Assembly (NCBI GenBank): GCA_965219955.1 | Contig: OZ244799.1 | Coordinates: 2,304,001-2,368,000 of the forward strand | Reading direction: 5' to 3' | From: a bacterium | Lineage (GTDB): Bacteria > UBA8248 | DNA: 64,000 nucleotides | In this document: positions 13,843-25,153 of the stretch, one piece after another | How the letters are laid out: the number at the start of each line of letters is the position of its first letter | Position numbering within the stretch: position 1 is the stretch's first letter | Made by a program: the position numbers and the translations under genes | The notes under the pieces: model-generated | Database searches by the model: none | Told to the model about the DNA's origin: nothing | What the model saw: the letters and a program-made list of their open reading frames with translations, nothing else

Positions 13843-14757
13843 ATGGCGCGCAAGGCAACGAAAAAAATCGCGTTCCTGGGCCTTGGCCGAATGGGCGGGT
13901 TGATGGCGAAACACCTGGTTGATGCGGGCTTCGACGTCACCGGCTACGACCCCGTGCCAAGGGCTGCCTCCGCCGCGAAGAAAAACGGCGCCAAAACCGC
14001 GAAAACCGTCGCGGCGGCCGTCAAGGGCGCTGACGTGGTTTGCAGTTCGCTCCCCAAGACCGACATCGTGAGAGACGTCTACCTGGGCAAAGGCGGCGCG
14101 CTCAAGACCATGCGGCGCGGCGCGGTATGCTTCGAGCTTTCGACGAGCAGCGTCGTCCTCGCAAAAGAGATCGCCGCAGAAGCCAGGAAGAAGAGAATCG
14201 CGTTTCTGGACGCTCCCGTGCTCGGAAGCGTTCCGCACCTGGAGCAAAAGGGAGTCTCCGCCATCGTGGGCGGAGACGAGGCTGCGCTCAAGGAACACCG
14301 TGACGTGCTCGACGCCTTCAGCAAGTCGGTCACATACATGGGGAAATCCGGAAACGGCCTGCTCATGAAGCTGGTATCGAACCACATCGTCTTCATCCAG
14401 CACGCCGGCATGGCCGAGGGACTCGCATTCGGGGTGAAGGCGGGACTCACGGCCCGGAAAATGATGAAATTCCTGCAAGGGAGCGTGATTCCGGACCTGA
14501 TCCACTACAAAGGCCCGGAGATGGCGGCGCGCGATTATTCCAATGTCATAGGGAACCTGGGACTCAGCTACAAGGACATGGGAATCAGCATGAACGAAGC
14601 GAACGATCTGGGCGTTCCCGTTCCCATTGGCGCCGCCGCGCGGCAGCAGCATACCTCCGCCATGGCGCTCGGGTTCGAACACGCGGACTTGAACGCCGTT
14701 TTCGAGGCTTTCCTGAACGCCGCGGGAATGAAGCCGCAGAAAAAATCATTTTCATAG
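13843..14757 (+). CDS. 3-hydroxyisobutyrate dehydrogenase family oxidoreductase (copy 2, close paralogue of copy 1)
   Basis: Same N-terminus MARKATKKIAFLGLGRMGG; DAPVLG; MKLVSN. Confidence 0.92.
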   Translation: MARKATKKIAFLGLGRMGGLMAKHLVDAGFDVTGYDPVPRAASAAKKNGAKTAKTVAAAVKGADVVCSSLPKTDIVRDVYLGKGGALKTMRRGAVCFELSTSSVVLAKEIAAEARKKRIAFLDAPVLGSVPHLEQKGVSAIVGGDEAALKEHRDVLDAFSKSVTYMGKSGNGLLMKLVSNHIVFIQHAGMAEGLAFGVKAGLTARKMMKFLQGSVIPDLIHYKGPEMAARDYSNVIGNLGLSYKDMGISMNEANDLGVPVPIGAAARQQHTSAMALGFEHADLNAVFEAFLNAAGMKPQKKSFS

Positions 14758-14893
14758 GGGCAGGCAAATACCCCACACGAGACGGGGGGCGCCTCTCCTG
14801 ATTTCATGAGGGATGGGCCTGTCCCCTCCCAGTCCATTGGCTCGCAAGCATGGACACTCAGCAATGGCGCATTACATTTAGGAGTGATTAGAA

Positions 14894-15772
14894 ATGGCGA
14901 AAGTGGTTGCTTTTCTGGGCCTCGGCAACATGGGCTCGGGCATGTCGGAAAATCTGGTGAAGGCGGGCTTCGAGGTTCGTGGCTTCGACCCCGTCCCCGC
15001 CGCACGCGAGCGGGCGGCATCGGCCGGCCTTACCGTCTTCGAGACGGCGGCGGAAGCCGCCACGGGGGCCGAGGTCATCTGCAGTTCGGTGCCCGAAGTC
15101 GAGCACGCGAGAGAAGCATATCTGGGAGAGACCGGCGCGCTCACGACGGCTACGGAAGGCGCGGTCTGTTTCGACCTGTCCACCCTCACGGTCGAGGGGA
15201 GCCAGGAGTTGGCGGCGGAAGCGGAAAAACAAGGCGTCCGGTTTCTGGATACCCCCGTGAGCGGGAGCGTGCCCCACGCGAGGGCGGGCACCCTCGCCAT
15301 CATGGCGGGGGGCGATGAGGCCTCGCTCGAAGCCCACCGCGACGTTCTGGAGGCCTTCAGCGCCTCGATCCACTACTTCGGCGCGAACGGCGCGGGCCTC
15401 CAGATGAAGCTGGTGACGAACCACATCTTCTCGATTCACATCTCCGCCATCGCCGAGGCGCTCACCATGGGGACGAAGGGAGGCCTCGACCCCGAACTGA
15501 TGGTCGAGTTCCTGAAAGCGAGCGTCATCCCCAAAATCCTCGAATACAAGGCCTCGCCCATGATCGCCAAGGACTACACGCCCACCTTCACGGTGAACCT
15601 GATGCTCAAGGATCTGCGCATCATCGCGGCGATGGCCGACGGCGTCGGGACGCCGATTCCGCTGGGCACGATGGCGCGGCAGGTCTACATGGGCGCAGCG
15701 GCCCTGGGCCACGGCGACGCGGACCAGAACGCCATTCTGGAGTTTTTCGAAAAAGGCGCGGGGATGGATTAG
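14894..15772 (+). CDS. 3-hydroxyisobutyrate dehydrogenase family oxidoreductase (copy 3, more divergent)
   Basis: FLGLGNMG, DTPVSG, MKLVTN, LMLKDL. Confidence 0.92.
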   Translation: MAKVVAFLGLGNMGSGMSENLVKAGFEVRGFDPVPAARERAASAGLTVFETAAEAATGAEVICSSVPEVEHAREAYLGETGALTTATEGAVCFDLSTLTVEGSQELAAEAEKQGVRFLDTPVSGSVPHARAGTLAIMAGGDEASLEAHRDVLEAFSASIHYFGANGAGLQMKLVTNHIFSIHISAIAEALTMGTKGGLDPELMVEFLKASVIPKILEYKASPMIAKDYTPTFTVNLMLKDLRIIAAMADGVGTPIPLGTMARQVYMGAAALGHGDADQNAILEFFEKGAGMD

Positions 15773-15780
15773 CGCGAAGA

Positions 15781-16098
15781 GGGGTTGTTGAAAAAGCCCG
15801 ATGCGGCGCAACCCCCCTCCTCGTCCTGCGTGGCCCGCCGCTCCGCCTCACCCTGAGTAGCGGCGAAGCCGCTTATCGAAGGGCGAAATTCGCGCCCGCT
15901 GCAGAGATGCGCCCCTCCATCCTTCGATACGGCGCTTGCGCGCCTACTCAGGATGAGGTTTTGTGGCCGCCCGCATCGGATATGTTCATCCCCGTGACTA
16001 CGCTTCGCAGGGACAGACACGGGGACCTCGGACAGGCACGGGGCCTGTCCGCTACAAACCCTCTACTTGCAGGAGCTTGGGCGGACTTTTTCAACAAC
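15781..16098. repeat. MITE-like element: GTTGTTGAAAAAG...CTTTTTCAACAAC ends enclosing CTGAGTAG..TATCGAAGG / CCTTCGATACG..CTACTCAGGATGAG palindromic repeats
   Basis: Terminal inverted repeats and internal modules recur many times in the window. Confidence 0.75.
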
Positions 16099-16357
16099 GA
16101 AGAGTGAGCGTTTGTCGTGCTGTTGATTCCACAAGCTGTCGTGGGCGCGTCTCTTGCGGCATGGCGCTTGGCGCTTTTTTCCGGATAATGACTCGATTTC
16201 GATGTTTCAAGAATCAGGCTTGCTATTCTTGAGTAAATTAGTTTAGTATTCGAAAGAATTGCGGGGCGGGCACTGCGCGCTCTGAAGTGCCGATAACTTA
16301 CGATTATCTATCCCATATCCCTTTTCAGCGAACGCTGGGAGCAAAGGAGATCAAGAA

Positions 16358-17557
16358 ATGTCGAAAACAGGACGGGACCTGCTCGAGGACGCGCGGGGCG
16401 ATGTTCCTGAGATCACGGCGGAGGAAGTGAAGTACGCCGTCGATACCGGCGCCGAGGTGGCGCTCATTGACGTGCGCGAACCGGATGAGTTCCGGGGCGG
16501 CTACCTGCCGGGTGCGGAGCACGTGAGCCGCGGATTCCTGGAACTCAAGATCGAGCAGGTCGTCCCCGACAGAAAGACGCCCATCGTCGCCTATTGCGCG
16601 GGCGGCGTGCGCTCGCTGCTCGCGGGCCAGGTGCTCCAGTCCATGGGTTATCAGAACGTGAAATCCATGGCGGGCGGTTACGGCAAGTGGAAGGATCTCG
16701 GTTTTCCCGTCCAGGTGGACAAGCAAATGAGCGCCGAGCAGCTGAACCGCTACAGCCGCCACTTCTTGCTCTCCCAGATCGGGGAAAAAGGCCAGGCCAA
16801 ACTCCTGGACGCCAAGGTCGTCCTGATAGGCGCGGGCGGGCTGGGTTCTCCCACCGGGCTGTATCTGACGGCCATGGGCGTGGGCAACATCGGCATCGTG
16901 GATATGGACGTCGTGGACATGAGCAACCTGCAGCGCCAGATCGTCCACACGAACGATCGCGTGGGCACCTCCAAGGTCGAGAGCGCGGCCGCCACCTTCA
17001 CCGCGCTGAACCCCGACGTGAACGTCATCGCGCACGAAGATAGAATCAACCGCGACAACGCGCTCGATATCCTGAAAGACTACGACGTCATCGTGAACGG
17101 GGCGGACAATTTCCCGACCCGCTACCTCGTGAACGACGCGGCTGTCTTTCTCGGAAAGCCCATCGTCGACGCCTCTATCTTCAAGTTCGAGGGCCAGGCC
17201 ACCGTCTACCATCCCGCCAAGGGCGGCCCCTGCTACCGCTGCCTCTATCCCGAACCGCCGCCGCCCGGCATGGTGCCCTCCTGCCAGGACGCGGGCGTGC
17301 TCGGCGCGCTTTGCGGCACGATGGGCTCCATCCAGGCGACGGAGACGGCCAAGCTCATCGTGGGCTTCGGCGAACCGCTTATCGGCAAACTCCTGATGTA
17401 CGACGCGCTCAAATCGCAGTTCAGGACGCTCAAGATCAGGCGCGACCCCGCCTGCCCGGTGTGCGGAGACAGCCCCTCCATCACCGAGCTCATCGACTAC
17501 GAGTTCTTCTGCGGCCTCACCGAAGCCCCCGCTACGGCCTCCGTCAACGGGGGCTGA
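16358..17557 (+). CDS. moeB: Molybdopterin-synthase adenylyltransferase MoeB/MoeZ-like (ThiF/E1 family) with N-terminal rhodanese domain
   Basis: Rhodanese IDVREPDE...YCAGGVRS; RYSRH, GAGGLGSP, SNLQRQ, CYRC, CPVC. Confidence 0.92.
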   Translation: MSKTGRDLLEDARGDVPEITAEEVKYAVDTGAEVALIDVREPDEFRGGYLPGAEHVSRGFLELKIEQVVPDRKTPIVAYCAGGVRSLLAGQVLQSMGYQNVKSMAGGYGKWKDLGFPVQVDKQMSAEQLNRYSRHFLLSQIGEKGQAKLLDAKVVLIGAGGLGSPTGLYLTAMGVGNIGIVDMDVVDMSNLQRQIVHTNDRVGTSKVESAAATFTALNPDVNVIAHEDRINRDNALDILKDYDVIVNGADNFPTRYLVNDAAVFLGKPIVDASIFKFEGQATVYHPAKGGPCYRCLYPEPPPPGMVPSCQDAGVLGALCGTMGSIQATETAKLIVGFGEPLIGKLLMYDALKSQFRTLKIRRDPACPVCGDSPSITELIDYEFFCGLTEAPATASVNGG

Positions 17558-17616
17558 TGGGAGAGAAGCGGGCAAGGAAGCGGACGTGGTGAACTAACAA
17601 AACCCAGCAAAAAGAC

Positions 17617-17653
17617 ACCCCCGGGGCATGAGCCTCGGGGGTTTTTCGCTTTT
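17617..17653 (+). terminator. Rho-independent terminator after moeB; marks the left edge of the AT-rich island
   Basis: ACCCCCGGGGC-ATGA-GCCTCGGGGGT hairpin followed by TTTTCGCTTTT. Confidence 0.8.
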
Positions 17654-17676
17654 CACATAAATTCAAAATATTTTGC

Positions 17677-17705
17677 TTGACAATAATAATTATTTGACTC
17701 ATAGT
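17677..17705 (+). promoter_or_regulatory. Putative sigma70 promoter of the retron operon
   Basis: TTGACA (17677-17682), 17-nt spacer, CATAGT; AT-rich upstream region. Confidence 0.6.
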
Positions 17706-17714
17706 TAGAAATAT

Positions 17715-18166
17715 TGCAGCAGGGTGATTCGCCCTGTATGTTCTTTGACAATCCATCTTCGAGTTTGGTGTTTAGACTTCTATCCGACACCTCTCCAAGC
17801 ATTCGGCTTTTCTGGATGCTTGTGCTTGAAATTTAGGCTATGCCTAAAATCCAGTGTGAAAATTCCGGCACTGTGATTTCCCATCTATGCAGCGAATCCA
17901 AGACCTTAGGTTTCCTATTTACAGAAGCATCGGGCATTGGGTTATCGGTCACTCACAAAATGAAAAATGTATGGAGAGGGCGTTCGCACTATTAATGAAC
18001 ATTATAGGCGAACTAGCGAATGAGGGGGTCTTACGGTAGATCCCGCCAGTTTCTAATCAGAAACAAACAAAGGACAAAGGAGGTGATTAGATGAAGAAAA
18101 TTTAAACACCAAAATCTCCGCCCGACAACTTTATCCATAGGAGAAAAAATAAATGGATAAAATCGG
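17715..18166 (+). ncRNA. Putative retron msr-msd-like structured RNA / 5' leader
   Basis: Perfect 11-bp long-range inverted repeat TTTGGTGTTTA (17764-17774) / TAAACACCAAA (18103-18113) enclosing several hairpins (17796-17822, 17832-17848, 17852-17873, 17982-18013, about 18025-18044, 18049-18064); lies upstream of a retron-type RT; ends approximate. Confidence 0.75.
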
Positions 18167-18464
18167 TAACTCGAAGGTGGGCCTTGAGAGGGCCGTAAAA
18201 GATGTTATCAAAGTCGCTTATAAGCTACTTCGGCAACAAAACGACCCTCTTATGGCGGGGACTTCAAAGGTAGTTCGTTGTCGTCTCAAGCAGCTTGAGC
18301 GTCAGTTGCAAAAAAAGCGAACGAATCCATTTCCCAAAAAAGAACTGGATAAAATCGCTAGAGAAGCAACTGACACGATAAGCTATCTTATGAAGTCCCT
18401 CATTCGTTACTTATTTTCCGCAATTTACAATTGCGAGTTATTGAAAGCATGGAAAACAAATTAG
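18153..18464 (+). CDS. Small basic hypothetical protein (103 aa), candidate retron effector
   Basis: SD AGGAG upstream, AT-rich like the island, overlaps the downstream HTH gene; no family recognised. Confidence 0.7.
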   Translation: MDKIGNSKVGLERAVKDVIKVAYKLLRQQNDPLMAGTSKVVRCRLKQLERQLQKKRTNPFPKKELDKIAREATDTISYLMKSLIRYLFSAIYNCELLKAWKTN

Positions 18465-18754
18465 GCAACACACTAAAAGTAATTAGAGTAGCTGCAGGTA
18501 TAAACCAGTCCGCTATGGCAAAAAAGCTGGAGATTACCCAAAACTATTTGTCTTTGGTCGAAAACAATCACAAAGAACCGAGCTTATCATTCTTGAAAAA
18601 GTTTGCCTCTAGTTTCGATATTCCTCTTGGGTATTTTTTATGGCTAGCCTTAGACAAGCAAGAAAATATGGAGGAAAAAGAATTGCGTGACAAGATGGAA
18701 ATACTTCTCAAAGAAATACTAATAGGCAGAAGAAGTGAAAATGTTACAGGATAA
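18449..18754 (+). CDS. XRE/Cro-C1 helix-turn-helix protein
   Basis: LGNTLKVIRVAAGINQSAMAKKLEITQNYLSLVENNHKEPSLSFLKKFA is a typical HTH_3 pattern; ATG at 18449. Confidence 0.9.
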   Translation: MENKLGNTLKVIRVAAGINQSAMAKKLEITQNYLSLVENNHKEPSLSFLKKFASSFDIPLGYFLWLALDKQENMEEKELRDKMEILLKEILIGRRSENVTG

Positions 18755-19688
18755 ACAGCCTAATCTAAAATCATCCTGGAATTTACGGACTTTGAAAGAT
18801 TTGTCACGCCTTCTAGGTGTAAAAGAAGAAATCATAAACGAGATTTCGAACTCAGCACACTTGATGTACCGGTCGCGAGAAGAACCAAAGAAATCTGGAG
18901 GAGCAAGACCAATAGATGTCCCTGGCAATAGATTAAAATGGATACAATCGACGATTAACAAGCGTTTATTGCAAAGGACCCTCGTCCATAAATCTGCAAT
19001 GGGTGGTATTCGAGGCAAACGATTAAAAGACAATGCTCAAAAACACGTTGGGAAAAATTTAGTTGCCAAATTCGATTTAGAAAATTACTTTTCGAATATT
19101 TCTCATCAGCAAGTCTACGATCGATTTTGCTCCATTGGATGCTCCCCTGATGTGGCTAGGGTTCTCACCAAACTAACAACATATAAAGGAAGAGTTCCAC
19201 AAGGAGCACCCACAAGTACTATGCTTGCGAATTTAGTAGCTGCATTTGCAAGAGACTGCAATAGTTTCAATGCAAGAATTGTTTCACTGGCTAAAAAGCG
19301 TCGTGCAACCGCTACTACTTGGGTTGACGATGTAACAATGTCAGGCCCGCGTAATATTCAAAAAGAAGCCAATACTTTCGAGAAAATTGCTAGGCAAAGT
19401 GGCTTCATACCAAACACTGATAAAAATGAATTCATAGGTAACAACCAACAACAATTCGTCACTGGAGCAGTTGTCAATCAAAAAGTAAGCGCCTCAAAAA
19501 AATACAGGAAAGCAATACGCGCGGAACTCCATCAACTCAAAGTTCATGGCCCAAGAAATATTTGTAAAGAGCCGATCAAAAAAATAAAGGAGCAGCTTCG
19601 GGGCAAAATTGCACACATAGACAACTTAAACCCCGAGCATGGTGAAAAACTTCTAAAAGAATTCAGCGCTATCGACTGGGACTCTTAA
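18735..19688 (+). CDS. Retron-type reverse transcriptase
   Basis: KKSGGARPI..LKWIQ, NAQKH (retron region X, NAxxH), DLENYF, PQGAPTS, WVDD (YxDD equivalent), VTG (retron region Y); 317 aa with no maturase, endonuclease or Cas1 domain; start may be ATG 18741. Confidence 0.93.
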   Translation: MKMLQDKQPNLKSSWNLRTLKDLSRLLGVKEEIINEISNSAHLMYRSREEPKKSGGARPIDVPGNRLKWIQSTINKRLLQRTLVHKSAMGGIRGKRLKDNAQKHVGKNLVAKFDLENYFSNISHQQVYDRFCSIGCSPDVARVLTKLTTYKGRVPQGAPTSTMLANLVAAFARDCNSFNARIVSLAKKRRATATTWVDDVTMSGPRNIQKEANTFEKIARQSGFIPNTDKNEFIGNNQQQFVTGAVVNQKVSASKKYRKAIRAELHQLKVHGPRNICKEPIKKIKEQLRGKIAHIDNLNPEHGEKLLKEFSAIDWDS

Positions 19689-19711
19689 AAGTCACCAACC
19701 ATAAGACTGAA

Positions 19712-20068
19712 CTACCCAATCTCCTCAAGCTCCGCCGCATCCATCACGGGCCGAATGGGGTAGCCGCCCCGCAGGAATTCGGCGAGAAAACCCAGGTGTT
19801 CGGCGAGGGCTGACATGTGCGCGGCGGCGTAGCGCGAGGAGAGCGCGTCGGCTTTCCGCGCCAGGGCTTCGCGGGCGTCCGCGGCGGGGTCATCCTGTGC
19901 GGCGAGGGCGTTATAGGCGTCGAGCAGGGCGCGCACGTCTTCGTGCTCCCCTGCATAGCCTGTATTCAGCGCATAGGGGCTTCGTAAGATCAAATGGACG
20001 GGGTTTTGCGTGTTCGAGGACTGATCGAGCATGCAGCGGCTGCGCCTTTGGTCGTAGTTTTCGGGCAT
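19712..20068 (-). CDS. Hypothetical protein
   Basis: SD GAGGA upstream, host-like codon usage, directly downstream of the MBL gene. Confidence 0.55.
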   Translation of the reverse strand: MPENYDQRRSRCMLDQSSNTQNPVHLILRSPYALNTGYAGEHEDVRALLDAYNALAAQDDPAADAREALARKADALSSRYAAAHMSALAEHLGFLAEFLRGGYPIRPVMDAAELEEIG

Positions 20069-20078
20069 GGCGTCCTCT

Positions 20079-20987
20079 TCAACCTCCCCTTGCGTCGTGG
20101 AGCGATATCCCCTGCTCGCCCCTCCCCTTGAACTCGTTGTAGAGCTTCATCACGGCCTGTTCGACGCGGTCGGGCTTCATCCACTCGGCATAAATCCCTA
20201 AGGGAATCTCGCGCGCGGCGCGTCTGGCGGGGATTCCCTCCTTGAAACGCTTTCGCGCCTCCCGGCGCACGAGCCGAAGGTAGCCCAGGGTTTTCTCGAG
20301 TGCACTCTTGTCCCCCGGCGGCCCGTGGCCCGGAACGACCGTCTCGACGGGGAAGGTTTTGAGTATCTTCTCCGCGACCCGTATCCACCCGCCGACGTGG
20401 GCGTCGAAGGTGGCGGGCGTGACGTAGTGAAAGCAGATGTCACCGGTGAAGAGAACACGCTCTTCGGGCAGATAGACGACCGTGTCGCCTTTCGAATGCG
20501 CGTGGCCCAGGTGGTGGAGTTCCACGACGCGCTTGCCCAGGCGGAGCGTCATGCCCCCCTCGTAGATGACGTCGGGAAAGCGCTGTTTGAGCCTTTTGAG
20601 TTCCGAGGCATATTCGGGGTTCACGCCCCGGTAGTGCGCGAGGTCGAGGCCCGTTTCCACCATCCGCTCGCGCATGTAGCGGTGTGCGATGACGGGGATA
20701 TCGTTATCGAACCAGATGAGGCCCAAGGTGTGATCCGCATGGTGGTGGGTGCAGACGACCTTGCGCACCGGCTTTCTGGTCGCTTTGAGGATGGCCTCCT
20801 GAAAGGCCTGCGTCATGGGGCGCACGTAGAGCGCGTCGACGACGAGCGCCTCATCGTCCCCCACGATGAGGCCTGCGTTCGAGACGTTCAGCCCGCCCGC
20901 CTGGATGTAGGCGTAGACGCCCGGGGCCATGCGCTGAAGCCCCGTCTTCCAGCTTGTGGGCACTTTCCGGGTTCCAGCCATGCGCAC
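20079..20987 (-). CDS. MBL-fold metallo-hydrolase (cyclase-like)
   Basis: SNAGLI, THHHADHTLG, AHSKGD, FTGD, VPGHG. Confidence 0.92.
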   Translation of the reverse strand: MRMAGTRKVPTSWKTGLQRMAPGVYAYIQAGGLNVSNAGLIVGDDEALVVDALYVRPMTQAFQEAILKATRKPVRKVVCTHHHADHTLGLIWFDNDIPVIAHRYMRERMVETGLDLAHYRGVNPEYASELKRLKQRFPDVIYEGGMTLRLGKRVVELHHLGHAHSKGDTVVYLPEERVLFTGDICFHYVTPATFDAHVGGWIRVAEKILKTFPVETVVPGHGPPGDKSALEKTLGYLRLVRREARKRFKEGIPARRAAREIPLGIYAEWMKPDRVEQAVMKLYNEFKGRGEQGISLHDARGG

Positions 20988-21106
20988 CTCCTTTTCAGGC
21001 GCATCATTCTACACGATGGGAGCGATTGACCGCACGCCGCCTTACGGGCGACATTGGCCCCGAATTCAAAGCCGGGGTTTCAGCCGTTCACGCAAAGGGG
21101 GAGCAA

Positions 21107-21517
21107 ATGCAATTATCATTCGATCACGTGCACATTATTTGCAAGGACTTGGAGGGGATGGCCGCCTTTTTCGAGAAGATATTCGGCGGCGAGGTCATCT
21201 ACCGCGAGGAGAATTTCCACGGCGCGCCCAACGCCGTCGTGCGGGTCGGTGAAGCGAGGCTTTTCTTGAGAGGCGTGCGCCCGGGCGAGCGCATCGGGGA
21301 GAACCACGAGGACGCCGTGATGGGCCTCGACCACTTCTCCTTCGCCGTGGACGATATCCACGGACTCGCGGCGCAAATGAAGGCGGCGGGCGCGGACTTC
21401 ATCCGCGACCCCTCCCCCTCGGGCATGGGCGGCAGGACGACAGCCTATATCAGAGGCCCCGAGGACGTGCGGATCGAGCTTTCCGAGCGCGCGGGAGAGA
21501 CCTACGGCGGCGGTTGA
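21107..21517 (+). CDS. VOC / glyoxalase family protein
   Basis: FDHVHI, LDHFSFAVDD, GPEDVRIEL; start at ATG 21107 after GGGGAG. Confidence 0.88.
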   Translation: MQLSFDHVHIICKDLEGMAAFFEKIFGGEVIYREENFHGAPNAVVRVGEARLFLRGVRPGERIGENHEDAVMGLDHFSFAVDDIHGLAAQMKAAGADFIRDPSPSGMGGRTTAYIRGPEDVRIELSERAGETYGGG

Positions 21518-21542
21518 AGCGCAGCTCAAGTCAAACAAAAAT

Positions 21543-21571
21543 AAACCCCCGGGCGTCAAACCCGGGGGTTT
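21543..21571. terminator. Bidirectional terminator between the convergent VOC and ino1 genes
   Basis: AAACCCCCGGG-CGTCAAA-CCCGGGGGTTT hairpin. Confidence 0.75.
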
Positions 21572-21591
21572 CATGTTCCGATGCGCAGGAG

Positions 21592-22737
21592 TTATTTGTG
21601 GTCGTAGCGGGCGGGCAGGCCGTTTCCGTTGAACTCGACCTGATCGCTCGCGCGCAGGTCGCCCGCGATGAATTCCTCGATCATCAGGCTCGCGACGGAA
21701 TCGGGCACCTGAACCGGGGGGTGCTTCATCAGATAGGCGCTCACCGGGTAGAGCGGCCCCGCCTCGCCCCGGTCGCGCGCGATGCGCGCCAGGCGAATCG
21801 CGTCGATGACGACGCCGCCCGAGTTGGGGGAATCCTCCACCGAGAGGCGCGCCTCGATCTCGAGCGGCACGCCTCCGAAGCCCTCCGCCTCGATCCGCAG
21901 GAAGCAGATCTTGTTGTCGTCCTGCCAGGGCACGTAATCGGACGGACCGATGTGGATGTCGTCCGAGTCCAGGGGTTCGGGCAACTGGCTCTGTACGGCG
22001 TCCGTTTTCGAGATTTTCTTGGACTTCAGGCGCGAGCGCTCCAGCATGTTCAGGAAATCGGTGTTTCCGCCCGTGTTCAACTGGTAGGTGCGCTTGAGCT
22101 TCACGCCCCTGTCCACGCACAGCCTGGCGAGCGTGCGGTGCAGGATGGTGGCGCCGAGCTGGGCCTTCACGTCGTCACCCACCACGGGTATTCCCGCATC
22201 GGTAAAGCGGCCCGCCCATTCGGGGTCCGAGACGATGAAGACCGGCATGCAGTTGATGAAGGAAACGCCCGCCGCGAGTGCGGCTTCCGCGTAGTGGCGC
22301 GCCGCCTGCTCGGAGCCCACGGGCATGAAGTTCAACAGAATTTCAGCACCACTCTCGCGAAGCTCCGCCGCCACGTCGCAGGGTTCGGCCTCGGCGGGCA
22401 GAAAAGAGCGATCCGAAGCGTATTCCGCCATGTGGGACGCCACGCCGTCGAGGATGGGGCCCATCCGCACGTTCACGCCGTAATCGGGCAGGTTCTCCCA
22501 GATGGTCTTCGTGCAGTTGGGCCTGGCGAAGGCCGCGGCGTGGAGCGGCTGGCCCACCTTGCGGACGTCGATGTCGAAAGCCGCTACGACCTCGATATCC
22601 TCCGGACCGTAGCCGCCCAGATCCCGGTGCATGAGGCCAAGCTCTTCCTCGGGATGGTGGCGGTAGTACTCGATGCCCTGTAGCAGGGAACTCGCGCAGT
22701 TCCCCACACCGGCGATGGCGATGCGAATCGGCGACAT
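21592..22737 (-). CDS. ino1: myo-inositol-1(3)-phosphate synthase
   Basis: GVGNCASSL, GDDVKAQLGAT, QLNTGGNTDFLNM, SKKISKT, EDSPNSGG. Confidence 0.95.
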   Translation of the reverse strand: MSPIRIAIAGVGNCASSLLQGIEYYRHHPEEELGLMHRDLGGYGPEDIEVVAAFDIDVRKVGQPLHAAAFARPNCTKTIWENLPDYGVNVRMGPILDGVASHMAEYASDRSFLPAEAEPCDVAAELRESGAEILLNFMPVGSEQAARHYAEAALAAGVSFINCMPVFIVSDPEWAGRFTDAGIPVVGDDVKAQLGATILHRTLARLCVDRGVKLKRTYQLNTGGNTDFLNMLERSRLKSKKISKTDAVQSQLPEPLDSDDIHIGPSDYVPWQDDNKICFLRIEAEGFGGVPLEIEARLSVEDSPNSGGVVIDAIRLARIARDRGEAGPLYPVSAYLMKHPPVQVPDSVASLMIEEFIAGDLRASDQVEFNGNGLPARYDHK

Positions 22738-22967
22738 GTATGTGTTTCCTTTCCTGCCTTTGCAGTCGCTGGGGCCTCAGATGACGGATCCCAAATCGAG
22801 CCCATGCGTCAGGATTCCCGCCGTCGGCCACGCGCGTGCGGATTCAAATTCAGGTCAATCGATGCGAACGCTTACGTCCACAGAAAGGCGACTATATCCC
22901 AAAAATCACATTTTCTCCAAGAGGAGGAGAGAAAATGATTCCAGAGGGCCTCGGGCGGGATACGCGG

Positions 22968-23966
<999 letters not shown>

Positions 23967-24074
23967 GGATAACCTCCGGATTGCGGACTAAGCCGAGCAG
24001 AACAGGTTAAAAGATAGGCGATTATAAGGACTCCGGATTCGGGTTGTCCAGTCGAATGCGCAGATTCCCGCAAA

Positions 24075-25077: not shown

Positions 25078-25153
25078 GCGCGTGTAGCTCAGAGGATAGA
25101 GCGCCTGCCTCCGGAGCAGGAAGTCGCAGGTTCGACTCCTGCCACGCGCACCA
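25078..25153 (+). tRNA. tRNA-Arg (anticodon CCG)
   Basis: GCGCGTG/CACGCGC acceptor stem, TAGCTCAG D-arm, CCTGC-CT-CCG-GA-GCAGG anticodon arm, GGTTCGACTCC, encoded CCA. Confidence 0.97.

Follow-up and report, generated by a model that had tools for sequence, protein, structure and literature searches.

In the window, that is, the whole 64,000-nucleotide stretch of contig OZ244799.1 (assembly GCA_965219955.1, lineage UBA8248) analysed here, GC content drops from 0.60–0.66 to 0.36–0.45 across approximately 17600–19700 and then recovers in the surrounding DNA of about 63% GC, no comparable trough being present elsewhere in the 64 kb. This block harbors a cassette consisting of a promoter, a long structured RNA and three overlapping open reading frames (ORFs) encoding a small protein (SP), a helix-turn-helix (HTH) protein and a retron reverse transcriptase (RT). 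Much of this anatomy had been outlined in a preliminary description made from the letters of the stretch, which reported an AT-rich block of about 2 kb in GC-rich DNA, a promoter, some 430 nt of hairpin-rich non-coding sequence and three overlapping ORFs; it holds, with the non-coding part now at about 440 nt and the RT at 315 instead of 317 aa. The following elements can be distinguished.

17648–19711: whole inserted cassette, 2,064 bp at about 40% GC, delimited by flank comparison with same-genus loci
17677–17705, + strand: sigma-70-type promoter, TTGACA-17-CATAGT, 10 of 12 positions matching
17713–18152, + strand: non-coding part of the predicted hybrid RNA, an msr-msd-like domain, with its start inferred from the -10 box
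17719–17737, + strand: conserved 8-bp 5' hairpin, 100% of cells paired in seven sequences
17753–17765, + strand: 5' arm of the long-range helix, 13 nt, 92% complementary
17786–17796, + strand: anti-Shine-Dalgarno-like strand (CACCUCUCC type, CACCUCC-type), 5' arm closing the inner domain
17857–17986, + strand: hypervariable segment inside a long irregular stem-loop, candidate msd
18077–18086, + strand: AAGGAGGUGA box, 3' arm of the inner-domain closing helix, in a2-like position
18130–18161, + strand: SP-start hairpin, 9 nt, 100% complementary, present in both folds
18153–18464, + strand: SP ORF, 103 aa, predicted toxin/effector
18168–18180, + strand: 3' arm of the long-range helix within SP codons 6–9, present in both minimum-energy folds
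18449–18754, + strand: XRE/Cro-C1-type HTH gene, 101 aa from its ATG, predicted antitoxin/regulator
18741–19688, + strand: retron RT gene, 315 aa from ATG 18741

SP and HTH genes overlap by 16 nt, HTH and RT genes by 14 nt, and the gene content of the insertion is limited to these three. The HTH ORF spans 18431–18754, where an alternative TTG start at 18431 would give 107 aa; the match to the PADLOC model HTH_VI begins at residue 10 of this longer form, and translation most likely starts at ATG 18449. The RT ORF spans 18735–19688 with an alternative GTG at 18735, while gene callers choose ATG 18741. Compared with the orthologous cassette of a sister species (locus L001), dN/dS amounts to 0.25 for SP and 0.17 for RT (0.08 for the flanking gene MoeB). 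Judged by these ratios, the cassette is subject to purifying selection and intact, the latter in line with the preliminary description. Divergence at the DNA level is strongest in the HTH gene, with 68–79% identity to L001 per 100 nt (18481–18780) and a dS that is saturated in the Nei–Gojobori (NG86) estimate, whereas SP and RT genes on either side mostly remain at 85–91%. Quicker evolution of the HTH gene or exchange of the HTH segment could be the reason for this divergence.

The RT carries the motifs NAQKH (19032–19046), W-V-D-D (19320–19331) and VTG (19458–19466), of which NAxxH and VTG are hallmarks of retron RTs. Besides Pfam RVT_1 (4.3e-15), it matches 50 PADLOC families, the best 25 of which are all retron RT models, with RT_III-A (228.8 bits), RT_VI (220.5 bits, 5–278 of 279 positions) and RT_II-A (213.7 bits) at the top. 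In NCBIfam, the retron St85 model reaches 163 bits, under its cut-off of 235, while the group II intron RT model (TIGR04416) stays at 34 bits versus a cut-off of 300 and Drt2 at 21 bits. The HTH protein matches HTH_3 (1.1e-11) and PADLOC HTH_VI (2.1e-25, 86.8 bits, model positions 1–88 of 92), above the about 76 bits over full model length from which a match to this model is informative; among the 42 family genomes, only five such full-length matches of at least 76 bits were found (in G001, G006, G000, G020 and G062). Among the weak NCBIfam matches of the HTH protein are the antitoxins HipB and Y4mF, both under cut-off. With respect to the relation to the HTH-associated class of Type VI retrons suggested earlier, the PADLOC search is corroborative on the side of the HTH protein, and less so for the RT, where RT_VI only comes second.

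Type VI has been defined by clade-3 retron RTs linked to Cro/C1-type HTH proteins of 91–110 aa (Mestre et al., 2020, PMC7736814), a range including both the 101-aa and the 107-aa form of the window's HTH protein. In the survey of Mestre et al., optional accessory proteins of 75–79 aa predicted to form three-helix bundles are listed, and a non-coding RNA (ncRNA) for Type VI is reported as not found (PMC7736814). The order ncRNA, SP, HTH and RT is canonical for the class, so that the effector not recognized in the preliminary description corresponds to SP. The cassette is a complete Type VI retron and represents a known kind of system, not a new one. Accordingly, its ranking as best candidate for a new system or subtype has to be replaced by that of a divergent new member of a published class; the unrecognized effector and the long ncRNA highlighted before are indeed present, but as features they already belong to the Type VI architecture as published. 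What is new here is an SP family of about 100 aa matching no library searched, a conserved W-x-DD box, a longer predicted hybrid RNA with a decoy Shine-Dalgarno/anti-Shine-Dalgarno helix, and the uncultured hosts.

Relatives of the RT comprise five close homologues (84–92% identity) and about 25 sequences at 45–56%. A metagenome scan with the RT alignment resulted in 80 loci, and these were scored for HTH linkage together with L001, the single locus found when scanning the genome collection with the RT. An HTH homologue is located directly 5' of the RT in 25 loci, counting the window's copies once. In a tree of 81 RTs, from which L002 and L003 (duplicates of the window and L001) and L010 (less than 230 aa) were left out, 24 of the 25 HTH-linked RTs fall together with three lacking upstream DNA on one side of a branch with a Shimodaira–Hasegawa-like approximate likelihood ratio test (SH-aLRT) value of 85. 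The window RT belongs to a clade of eight with a support of 99, seven members of which are accompanied by SP and HTH and one lacks upstream DNA. When PADLOC was re-run on ten RTs from the tree, five HTH-linked and five without upstream HTH, RT_VI was the best model for four of the five HTH-linked enzymes (209–248 bits), the exception being L004 from the window's own subclade with RT_III-A first (205 versus 184 bits). The five without upstream HTH, all on the tree side opposite the window, obtained 344–503 bits on RT_III-A or RT_Ec107-like models. By its model scores, the window RT lineage is a divergent branch with a poor fit to every PADLOC RT model, and with RT_III-A ranking above RT_VI such systems may be missed or mistyped by the RT models of defence-finding tools.

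The variant active site pointed out before is a WVDD box. Of the 30 RTs aligned for the sub-lineage (46–89% identity), 29 have tryptophan (W) ahead of x-DD and the remaining one has Y, and both aspartates are invariant. Across the 81 tree rows, W[VI]DD is found in 22 of 25 HTH-linked RTs, in none of the 47 without HTH (YADD or YCDD) and in two of nine without upstream DNA, a distribution in which the HTH-linked sample is biased to W by one of the two fetching peptide patterns (W[IV]DD...). A full-text literature search combining 'retron' with 'WxDD' did not find any paper. The conservation of W and the low dN/dS of the RT argue for a working enzyme with WVDD box.

SP is a basic protein (pI 10.1) for which a structure model with a predicted local distance difference test score (pLDDT) of 78.8 shows three helices (residues 4–27, 32–53 and 62–102), the C-terminal one being hydrophobic/aromatic and the last 30 residues the most hydrophobic. 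Comparison with Pfam, PADLOC, NCBIfam and PHROGs did not give any match, and a Foldseek search of the model against the PDB resulted in nothing at E ≤ 1e-3 and in generic helical bundles only. In a collection of 5.8 billion proteins, four close homologues (77–88% identity) were found, and a profile of 11 SP sequences retrieved 25 representative clusters at E ≤ 1e-3 among 1.84 billion proteins, each of 81–137 aa apart from one 1,115-aa repeat protein. An SP homologue is located directly 5' of HTH in L001 and L004–L008 as well as in L100, a locus from another genus of the family. SP is evidently a real gene, given these homologues upstream of HTH, the 25 clusters, the dN/dS of 0.25 and the three-helix model. 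Eukaryotic hypothetical clusters of the ESM Atlas sharing 140–147 of 256 features with SP were treated as chance matches. A metagenome scan with single-SP patterns brought 0 relatives in 253 pattern matches, and a viral-contig scan with the SP alignment 0 in 61.

When searching the + strand ORFs of at least 35 aa from 83 loci with a profile of ten SPs, only the subclade and one marginal row (L029, E = 9e-4) were recovered. The ORFs at SP position in the other HTH-linked loci represent separate sequence families tracking the RT clades. In the published tree, Type VI RTs are monophyletic, with sub-lineages tracking the SP clusters cl2075, cl2760, cl3272 and cl3897, plus a heterogeneous lineage termed 'Large' (Garcia-Rodriguez et al., 10.64898/2026.04.27.721009). 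The length of 103 aa and the missing match to other SP-position ORFs indirectly place the window's protein away from the published clusters of 75–79 aa. As a side observation, the start region of SP (18133–18168) recurs within the gene at 18325–18360 with 78% identity, the first copy encoding M-D-K-I-G and the internal one L-D-K-I-A (residues 65–69); this may be due to chance, an old internal duplication or a repeat at the RNA level.

Transcription of the cassette is predicted to proceed from the single sigma-70-type promoter, which is kept in all seven related loci as TTGACAG, a second TTGAC box and (C/T)ATAGT. The second box overlaps the promoter spacer, 17 nt from the first (17677–17699), and both are retained in the seven loci although the RTs are only 45–50% identical. 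These tandem TTGAC boxes are a candidate operator for the HTH protein. The promoter motif TTGACNYATAGTT is present in every subclade locus and, apart from L100, in none of the other fetched loci.

About 440 nt between the start predicted near 17713 and the SP ATG (18153) are non-coding, and the complete predicted transcript from promoter to SP stop measures 752 nt in the window and 758–934 nt in the other six loci. Folding of 454 nt results in a z-score of -4.78 (0 of 100 shuffles as good) and that of 769 nt including the SP ORF in one of -10.6 (0 of 20), with two further z-scores at -6.4 and -4.1. Minimum-energy folding leads to a common architecture for the window and L001, in which an invariant TTCTTTGA(C/A)AA box is found. 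For this TCTTTGA(C/A)AA box, a partner in the 3' part of the transcript was sought, and no conserved pairing emerged, the best duplexes differing among the seven loci. The RNAalifold consensus of the seven-sequence alignment comprises 69 pairs. Counted on the same seven related sequences from which the structure was derived, standard pairs are found in 92.7% of cells versus 38–49% when partners are slid by 1–3 columns, and 33 pairs are altered on both sides versus 4–10 in the slid controls. On four of five pairing measures the observed values are reached by 0 of 500 shuffles; the hypervariable middle of the RNA is poorly aligned by MAFFT.

Three helices are each kept in all seven sequences. 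The 5' hairpin is situated just 5' of the first long-range repeat arm, shows GC-to-AU compensation in L006 and L008, and has a pattern present in subclade loci only; 30 hits for it on viral contigs were dismissed as chance, none having an adjacent promoter or TCTTTGA box. The helix between leader and SP codons 6–9 is paired in 93.9% of cells with four of seven pairs changed on both sides. It forms one part of a long closing helix, the second part consisting of 17761–17779 paired with 18098–18116, and between the two parts branches off the SP-start hairpin, whose loop contains the Shine-Dalgarno sequence AGGAG (18139–18143) and whose stem includes the SP AUG (18153). Finally, the helix between the anti-Shine-Dalgarno-like strand and its Shine-Dalgarno-like counterpart is paired in 91.9% of cells and encloses a domain of several stem-loops. 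Its GGAGGUGA element is invariant in all seven sequences and has a second copy as SP ribosome-binding site in L004, L005 and L007; the strand 17786–17796 may play the role of the retron a1 region. Overall, the alignment supports a fold common to the related loci that would bury the ribosome site and start codon of SP.

Within the enclosed domain, 17893–17986 is 54% identical to L001 versus 83–91% around it, and in place of the 75 nt at 17857–17931 the relatives from sequencing runs X13 and X14 (see below) have diverged sequence of equal length. This makes 17857–17986 a candidate for the reverse-transcription template (msd). An Rfam search of 17300–20000 at E ≤ 10 showed chance-level rows only, the best at 21 bits versus a gathering score of 54. 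Directly after GGAGGUGA and at Shine-Dalgarno distance, a mini-ORF of four codons (ATG, three codons, TAA; 18090–18104) can be noticed, which is also found in L001 and is missing from L004–L008.

For the HTH-SP pair, complex models were computed from own alignments (16 rows for HTH, 11 for SP), for which reason the calibration counts are only rough. The scores of 0.62, 0.62 and 0.67 in three runs contrast with 0.00, 0.14 and 0.00 for controls, at a mark that 58 of 80 solved complexes attain, compared with 2 of 110 mismatched pairs. Contact agreement between the runs is at least 74% and partner pLDDT at least 70. In the modelled interface, the C-terminal helix region of HTH (57–93) is placed against residues 10–28 and 66–87 of SP. 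The modelling supports binding of SP by the HTH protein.

On the left of the cassette, a MoeB/ThiF-rhodanese gene with an intrinsic terminator at 17617–17642 is located, and on the right the stop codon of a convergent 118-aa gene. The MoeB 3' end was detected in 21 of 22 other same-genus genomes, from which the best 12 loci, including the window's own, were returned, so that the comparison of both flanks covered 11 same-genus loci. In nine of these, the site is empty, the MoeB/ThiF terminator being separated from the convergent gene's stop codon by only 5–22 nt. One (G020, corresponding to L001/L092) carries the same cassette at the same site, and another (L091) matched on the left flank only, its right side being different. 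On account of the empty sites, the cassette is considered foreign, in agreement with the horizontal acquisition assumed in the preliminary description: the flank comparison indicates that the block was acquired horizontally by the host lineage and is found at the corresponding position in one sister species too. A target-site duplication was not seen at the borders, and the cassette does not include an integrase or transposase gene. A retron of 2 kb can be a solitary insertion without mobility gene in uncultured bacterial genomes. Relatives on metagenome contigs are embedded in DNA of 38–44% GC, which would fit an origin of the cassette from low-GC bacteria. The closest named homologues of MoeB (81–86% identity, this one gene only) are from metagenome-assembled genomes of Candidatus Tectomicrobia or Nitrospinota. 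In G011 and G012, the corresponding site is without the cassette, although their MoeB 3' ends are 94–95% similar, compared with 93% for G020; this patchy distribution within the genus suggests that the cassette was lost, gained a second time or transferred through recombination of the flanks.

Taking these lines of evidence together, the block is very probably a self-contained, horizontally acquired Type VI retron acting as an abortive-infection-type anti-phage module. In the mechanism proposed, a single promoter would drive a structured hybrid RNA of about 750 nt, the 5' 440 nt of which would be msr-msd-like while the 3' part encodes SP, followed by the HTH and RT genes. SP would be the toxic effector. 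In the uninfected cell, the RNA would hide the SP ribosome site and start codon, with the hairpin 18130–18161 being clamped by the long-range helices that 17753–17779 forms with 18098–18116 and 18168–18180, and the HTH protein might bind SP via its C-terminal helix in the manner of an antitoxin. The RT with its W-V-D-D box would use the variable stem-loop of the RNA as template for single-stranded DNA (ssDNA). Interference of a phage with host or phage recombination/nuclease functions might then alter the fate of the ssDNA or of the HTH-RT-RNA complex, whereupon SP would be freed and halt the infected cell. Of this picture, anatomy, homology, conserved pairing of the RNA, purifying selection and foreign origin are observed in the window, and SP toxicity, the HTH protein as antitoxin, ssDNA synthesis, the trigger and protection from phages are carried over from the two relatives studied.

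Several findings weigh against this assignment and the function connected with it. HTH_VI is unspecific at low scores, having matches in 13 of 14 genomes taken as controls and in 38 of 42 from the family. RT_III-A is the best PADLOC RT model ahead of RT_VI, and for L004 the gap is even wider (205.2 versus 183.6 bits). The sole label in the RT tree is the presence of an upstream HTH, labelled reference RTs of Types IV, V and VI not being among its rows, the branch joining the HTH-linked RTs has with SH-aLRT 85 no strong support, and the HTH-linked L055, on a long branch, stands outside this side of the tree. In the catalytic box, W replaces the Y of both Type VI RTs studied. Between SP and the ORFs at the corresponding position in the other HTH-linked loci, no significant similarity is seen, and an hhalign comparison of the SP alignment with one of these families gives a probability of 0.5%, with a resemblance limited to 12 C-terminal columns (K-x-L-x-R-Y). 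The pairings of the RNA were derived from and counted on one set of related sequences. Finally, a single 2,130-nt contig from the metatranscriptomic run X14, which spans 17769–19706, counts in favor by placing a relative's cassette in an RNA library, but falls short of proof of transcription.

Two Type VI retrons have been studied experimentally, and the modes proposed for them are opposite; Type VI is the least settled retron class. In Retron-Vpa2 from Vibrio parahaemolyticus, a hybrid RNA (hyRNA) of about 470 nt holds msr-msd and the coding sequence for a toxic SP of 55 aa, whose ribosome site and AUG are within stem-loops. HTH, RT and hyRNA form a complex, and the multicopy single-stranded DNA (msDNA), undetectable at rest, builds up with phage recombination proteins and is required for SP translation; conserved direct repeats were proposed as riboregulator (Zhang et al., 10.1101/2025.10.22.683967). 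In Retron-Sen3 from Salmonella enterica, on the other hand, the 79-aa SP is constitutive, toxic and neutralized by HTH, and RecBCD inhibition is the trigger. Defence requires an 18-nt stem-loop, SP can be detected in the absence of phage despite a predicted sequestration of its ribosome site, and the HTH-SP module functions without RT and ncRNA (Garcia-Rodriguez et al., 10.64898/2026.04.27.721009). The Sen3 lineage (cl2075) is described for Beta- and Gammaproteobacteria with SPs of 75–79 aa (10.64898/2026.04.27.721009, PMC7736814), whereas Vpa2 has been placed in the 'Large' lineage, the home of unclassified SPs (Garcia-Rodriguez et al., 10.64898/2026.04.27.721009).

The window's RNA closely resembles both published RNAs, while its sequence elements are confined to the subclade. 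With Vpa2 the cassette has in common the order of structured RNA, SP, HTH and RT, an SP coding sequence within a highly structured transcript whose arms are tied by inverted repeats, the position of SP ribosome site and start codon in stem-loops, and a hydrophobic C-terminal SP helix. It differs from Vpa2 by an SP of 103 instead of 55 aa, a hybrid RNA predicted at about 750 nt (758–934 nt in relatives) and thus about 1.6 times longer, a WVDD instead of a YADD box, and a host from an uncultured lineage with about 63% GC. Moreover, the conserved 7-nt loop repeats of Vpa2 were not recognized in the window when compared by their description, that is, without a reference sequence. Features in common with Sen3 are the SP-HTH-RT layout, a long internal stem-loop with non-conserved center, long-range pairing embedding the SP gene in an RNA scaffold, and a 5' hairpin in the position of the stem-loop required in Sen3. 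The topology of the modelled interface also equals that of the Sen3 AlphaFold3 model, in which HTH alpha6 contacts SP alpha1 and alpha3. In contrast, Sen3 has a 79-aa SP of cluster cl2075 and not a 103-aa protein of a family without detectable match, YVDD instead of WVDD, a hairpin stem of 5 instead of 8 bp, the second inverted repeat (IR2) downstream of the SP stop and not, as the long-range partner in the window, in SP codons 6–9, and Beta-/Gammaproteobacteria as hosts of its lineage instead of an uncultured one. Measured against the class as surveyed by Mestre et al., the combination of RT, small Cro/C1-type HTH and three-helix accessory protein is the same, whereas the accessory clusters listed there are of 75–79 aa and come without ncRNA, compared with 103 aa and an RNA in the window.

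Most likely, by analogy, the cassette works like both studied Type VI retrons, with SP as toxin, the HTH protein as antitoxin and/or repressor of reverse transcription, and RT-RNA as infection sensor. Since features of both are present, it cannot be assigned to either msDNA-gated control as in Vpa2 or post-translational control as in Sen3. The window cassette and its about 30 relatives represent a third, well-separated lineage bearing hallmarks of both modes, and the combination of a sequestered SP start with a modelled HTH-SP interface makes it a useful test of which features are general in the class. The W-x-DD box is conserved in the sub-lineage and common among the HTH-linked RTs sampled, a sample drawn in part by means of the motif itself.

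Control exactly as in Sen3, where SP would be constitutive, the HTH antitoxin the sole and post-translational control, the RNA only the template of the RT and ssDNA constant on infection, is a rather doubtful account of the cassette. It would agree with the complex model favoring HTH-SP binding through a Sen3-like interface, with the resemblance of the conserved 5' hairpins, and with the fact that in Sen3 SP is made in spite of a ribosome site predicted to be sequestered. However, initiation of SP in the window is buried beyond what a template needs, by a hairpin and two long-range helices, one of them reaching into codons 6–9, and these pairings are maintained by compensatory changes in the seven loci. 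Also the Beta-/Gammaproteobacteria and SPs of 75–79 aa in the published tree description of cl2075 do not suit the window's host and protein.

Rather doubtful, too, is control exactly as in Vpa2, with the hybrid RNA blocking SP translation until msDNA is induced by the phage and the HTH protein repressing reverse transcription but not SP. The sequestered ribosome site and AUG would be in line with this, as would the 'Large' lineage, where both Vpa2 and unclassified SPs belong. Furthermore, in three of the seven loci GGAGGUGA occurs as a direct repeat in the a2-like arm and the SP ribosome site, recalling the riboregulator repeats of Zhang et al. In the window, however, the SP ribosome site (AGGAG) repeats just 5 nt of the box, and when looking for direct repeats of the Vpa2 style shared by the variable stem-loop and the SP leader, short ones were seen in the window but none conserved in L001. 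Direct contact between HTH and SP, as favored by the complex model, also speaks against this mode.

A further scheme, in which the sub-lineage would be a distinct Type VI variant switching on its toxin in cis by reverse transcription, is unlikely. In this scheme, the decoy helix of Shine-Dalgarno and anti-Shine-Dalgarno elements (CACCUCC-type strand plus GGAGGUGA) would close the inner RNA domain, while the helix from 5' leader to SP codons 6–9 would clamp the SP start. Copying of the template with removal of RNA by RNase H might then either detach the clamp strands at the 5' end from the mRNA of SP or free the anti-Shine-Dalgarno strand for a swap of partners, and either change of the RNA would license translation of the SP of about 100 aa, belonging to a sequence family unrelated to those studied. 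The W-for-Y box kept in many HTH-linked RTs might tune the enzyme for low-level, gated synthesis.

It is very improbable that the cassette is a degenerate retron in which replacement of Y by W abolished polymerase activity, leaving an SP/HTH addiction module without role in defence. Such a module would have a precedent in the HTH-SP pair of Sen3 functioning on its own, W is unusual at this position, and the literature search was fruitless. Against this, W is found almost throughout the sub-lineage along with invariant aspartates, and the RT dN/dS of 0.17 and the compensated RNA fold are signatures of a working RT-RNA pair. A small basic toxin-like protein encoded beside an overlapping XRE-HTH gene, with binding between both proteins supported by the model, resembles Type II toxin-antitoxin systems with XRE/HipB-like antitoxins. 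Different from Type II systems, the toxin comes first in the window, the pair is joined with RT and structured RNA in one cassette, and the HTH protein is far better matched by the retron-specific HTH_VI.

Hardly credible is an RT of another retron type (III-A, II-A) or of non-retron kind (group II intron, diversity-generating retroelement (DGR), UG/Abi/DRT) standing beside an unrelated XRE regulator, since the lead of RT_III-A by 8 bits, with RT_II-A close, is faced with 344–503 bits for the five scanned RTs of that affinity, which have YADD or YCDD and no upstream HTH, versus 229 for the window, with the absence from the 2-kb insertion of any phosphoribosyltransferase (PRTase), winged-helix (wHTH) or Ndt gene, including the PRTase-like/winged-helix partner of Type III-A, with the low scores on the group II and Drt2 models, with an Rfam search free of intron or other RNA families, with a region 14000–24000 in which a template/variable repeat pair (long near-identical direct repeats) was not found, and with an HTH gene that overlaps the RT gene and co-occurs with it in 25 loci. 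By these model scores and repeat searches, an affinity to group II introns or DGRs, named in the preliminary description among the results that would contradict a retron, was not observed.

Close relatives of the cassette can also be traced in sequencing runs. The exact stretch is contained in X1–X4, which may represent the source sample and were therefore disregarded. Among 23 listed runs, 16 share 6–16% of the sampled words, and four (X5, X7, X13 and X14) were compared by contigs, which give neither ends nor levels and in which uncovered parts are no evidence either way. In X7, labelled as sponge metagenome, one contig extends over 17659–19689 with 147 differing letters (about 93% identity), and in X13 and X14, derived from one sample with the same label, a common relative of about 89% identity is present.

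In other genomes of the family, further HTH-RT pairs were noticed. In G001 (L096, 1495–2716) and G006 (L097, 1477–2692), a different HTH of HTH_VI type (108–110 bits) overlaps an RT of 295–322 aa that is only distantly similar to the window RT (69–72 bits). Both loci lie in AT-rich islands (0.43–0.50 versus 0.65–0.73 GC), and upstream ORFs of at least 60 aa were not seen, so any SP would be smaller. By these scores, they are a second Type VI-like lineage in the same genus. In G062, from another genus of the family, a cassette of the window's subclade is found on the minus strand of L100 (30–1239), with an SP homologue of 115 aa (profile E = 2e-17), an HTH at 98 bits and an RT truncated where the contig ends; its promoter box is present, while the exact 5' hairpin pattern is unmatched.

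In the remaining window, the sole tRNA, a tRNA-Arg (CCG) at 25078–25153, is located 5 kb from the cassette and away from its borders. In the GC-rich coding DNA 5' of the cassette, a 93-nt direct repeat (14356–14448 and 15395–15487, 72% identity, 1,039 nt apart) probably reflects two paralogous genes or domains.

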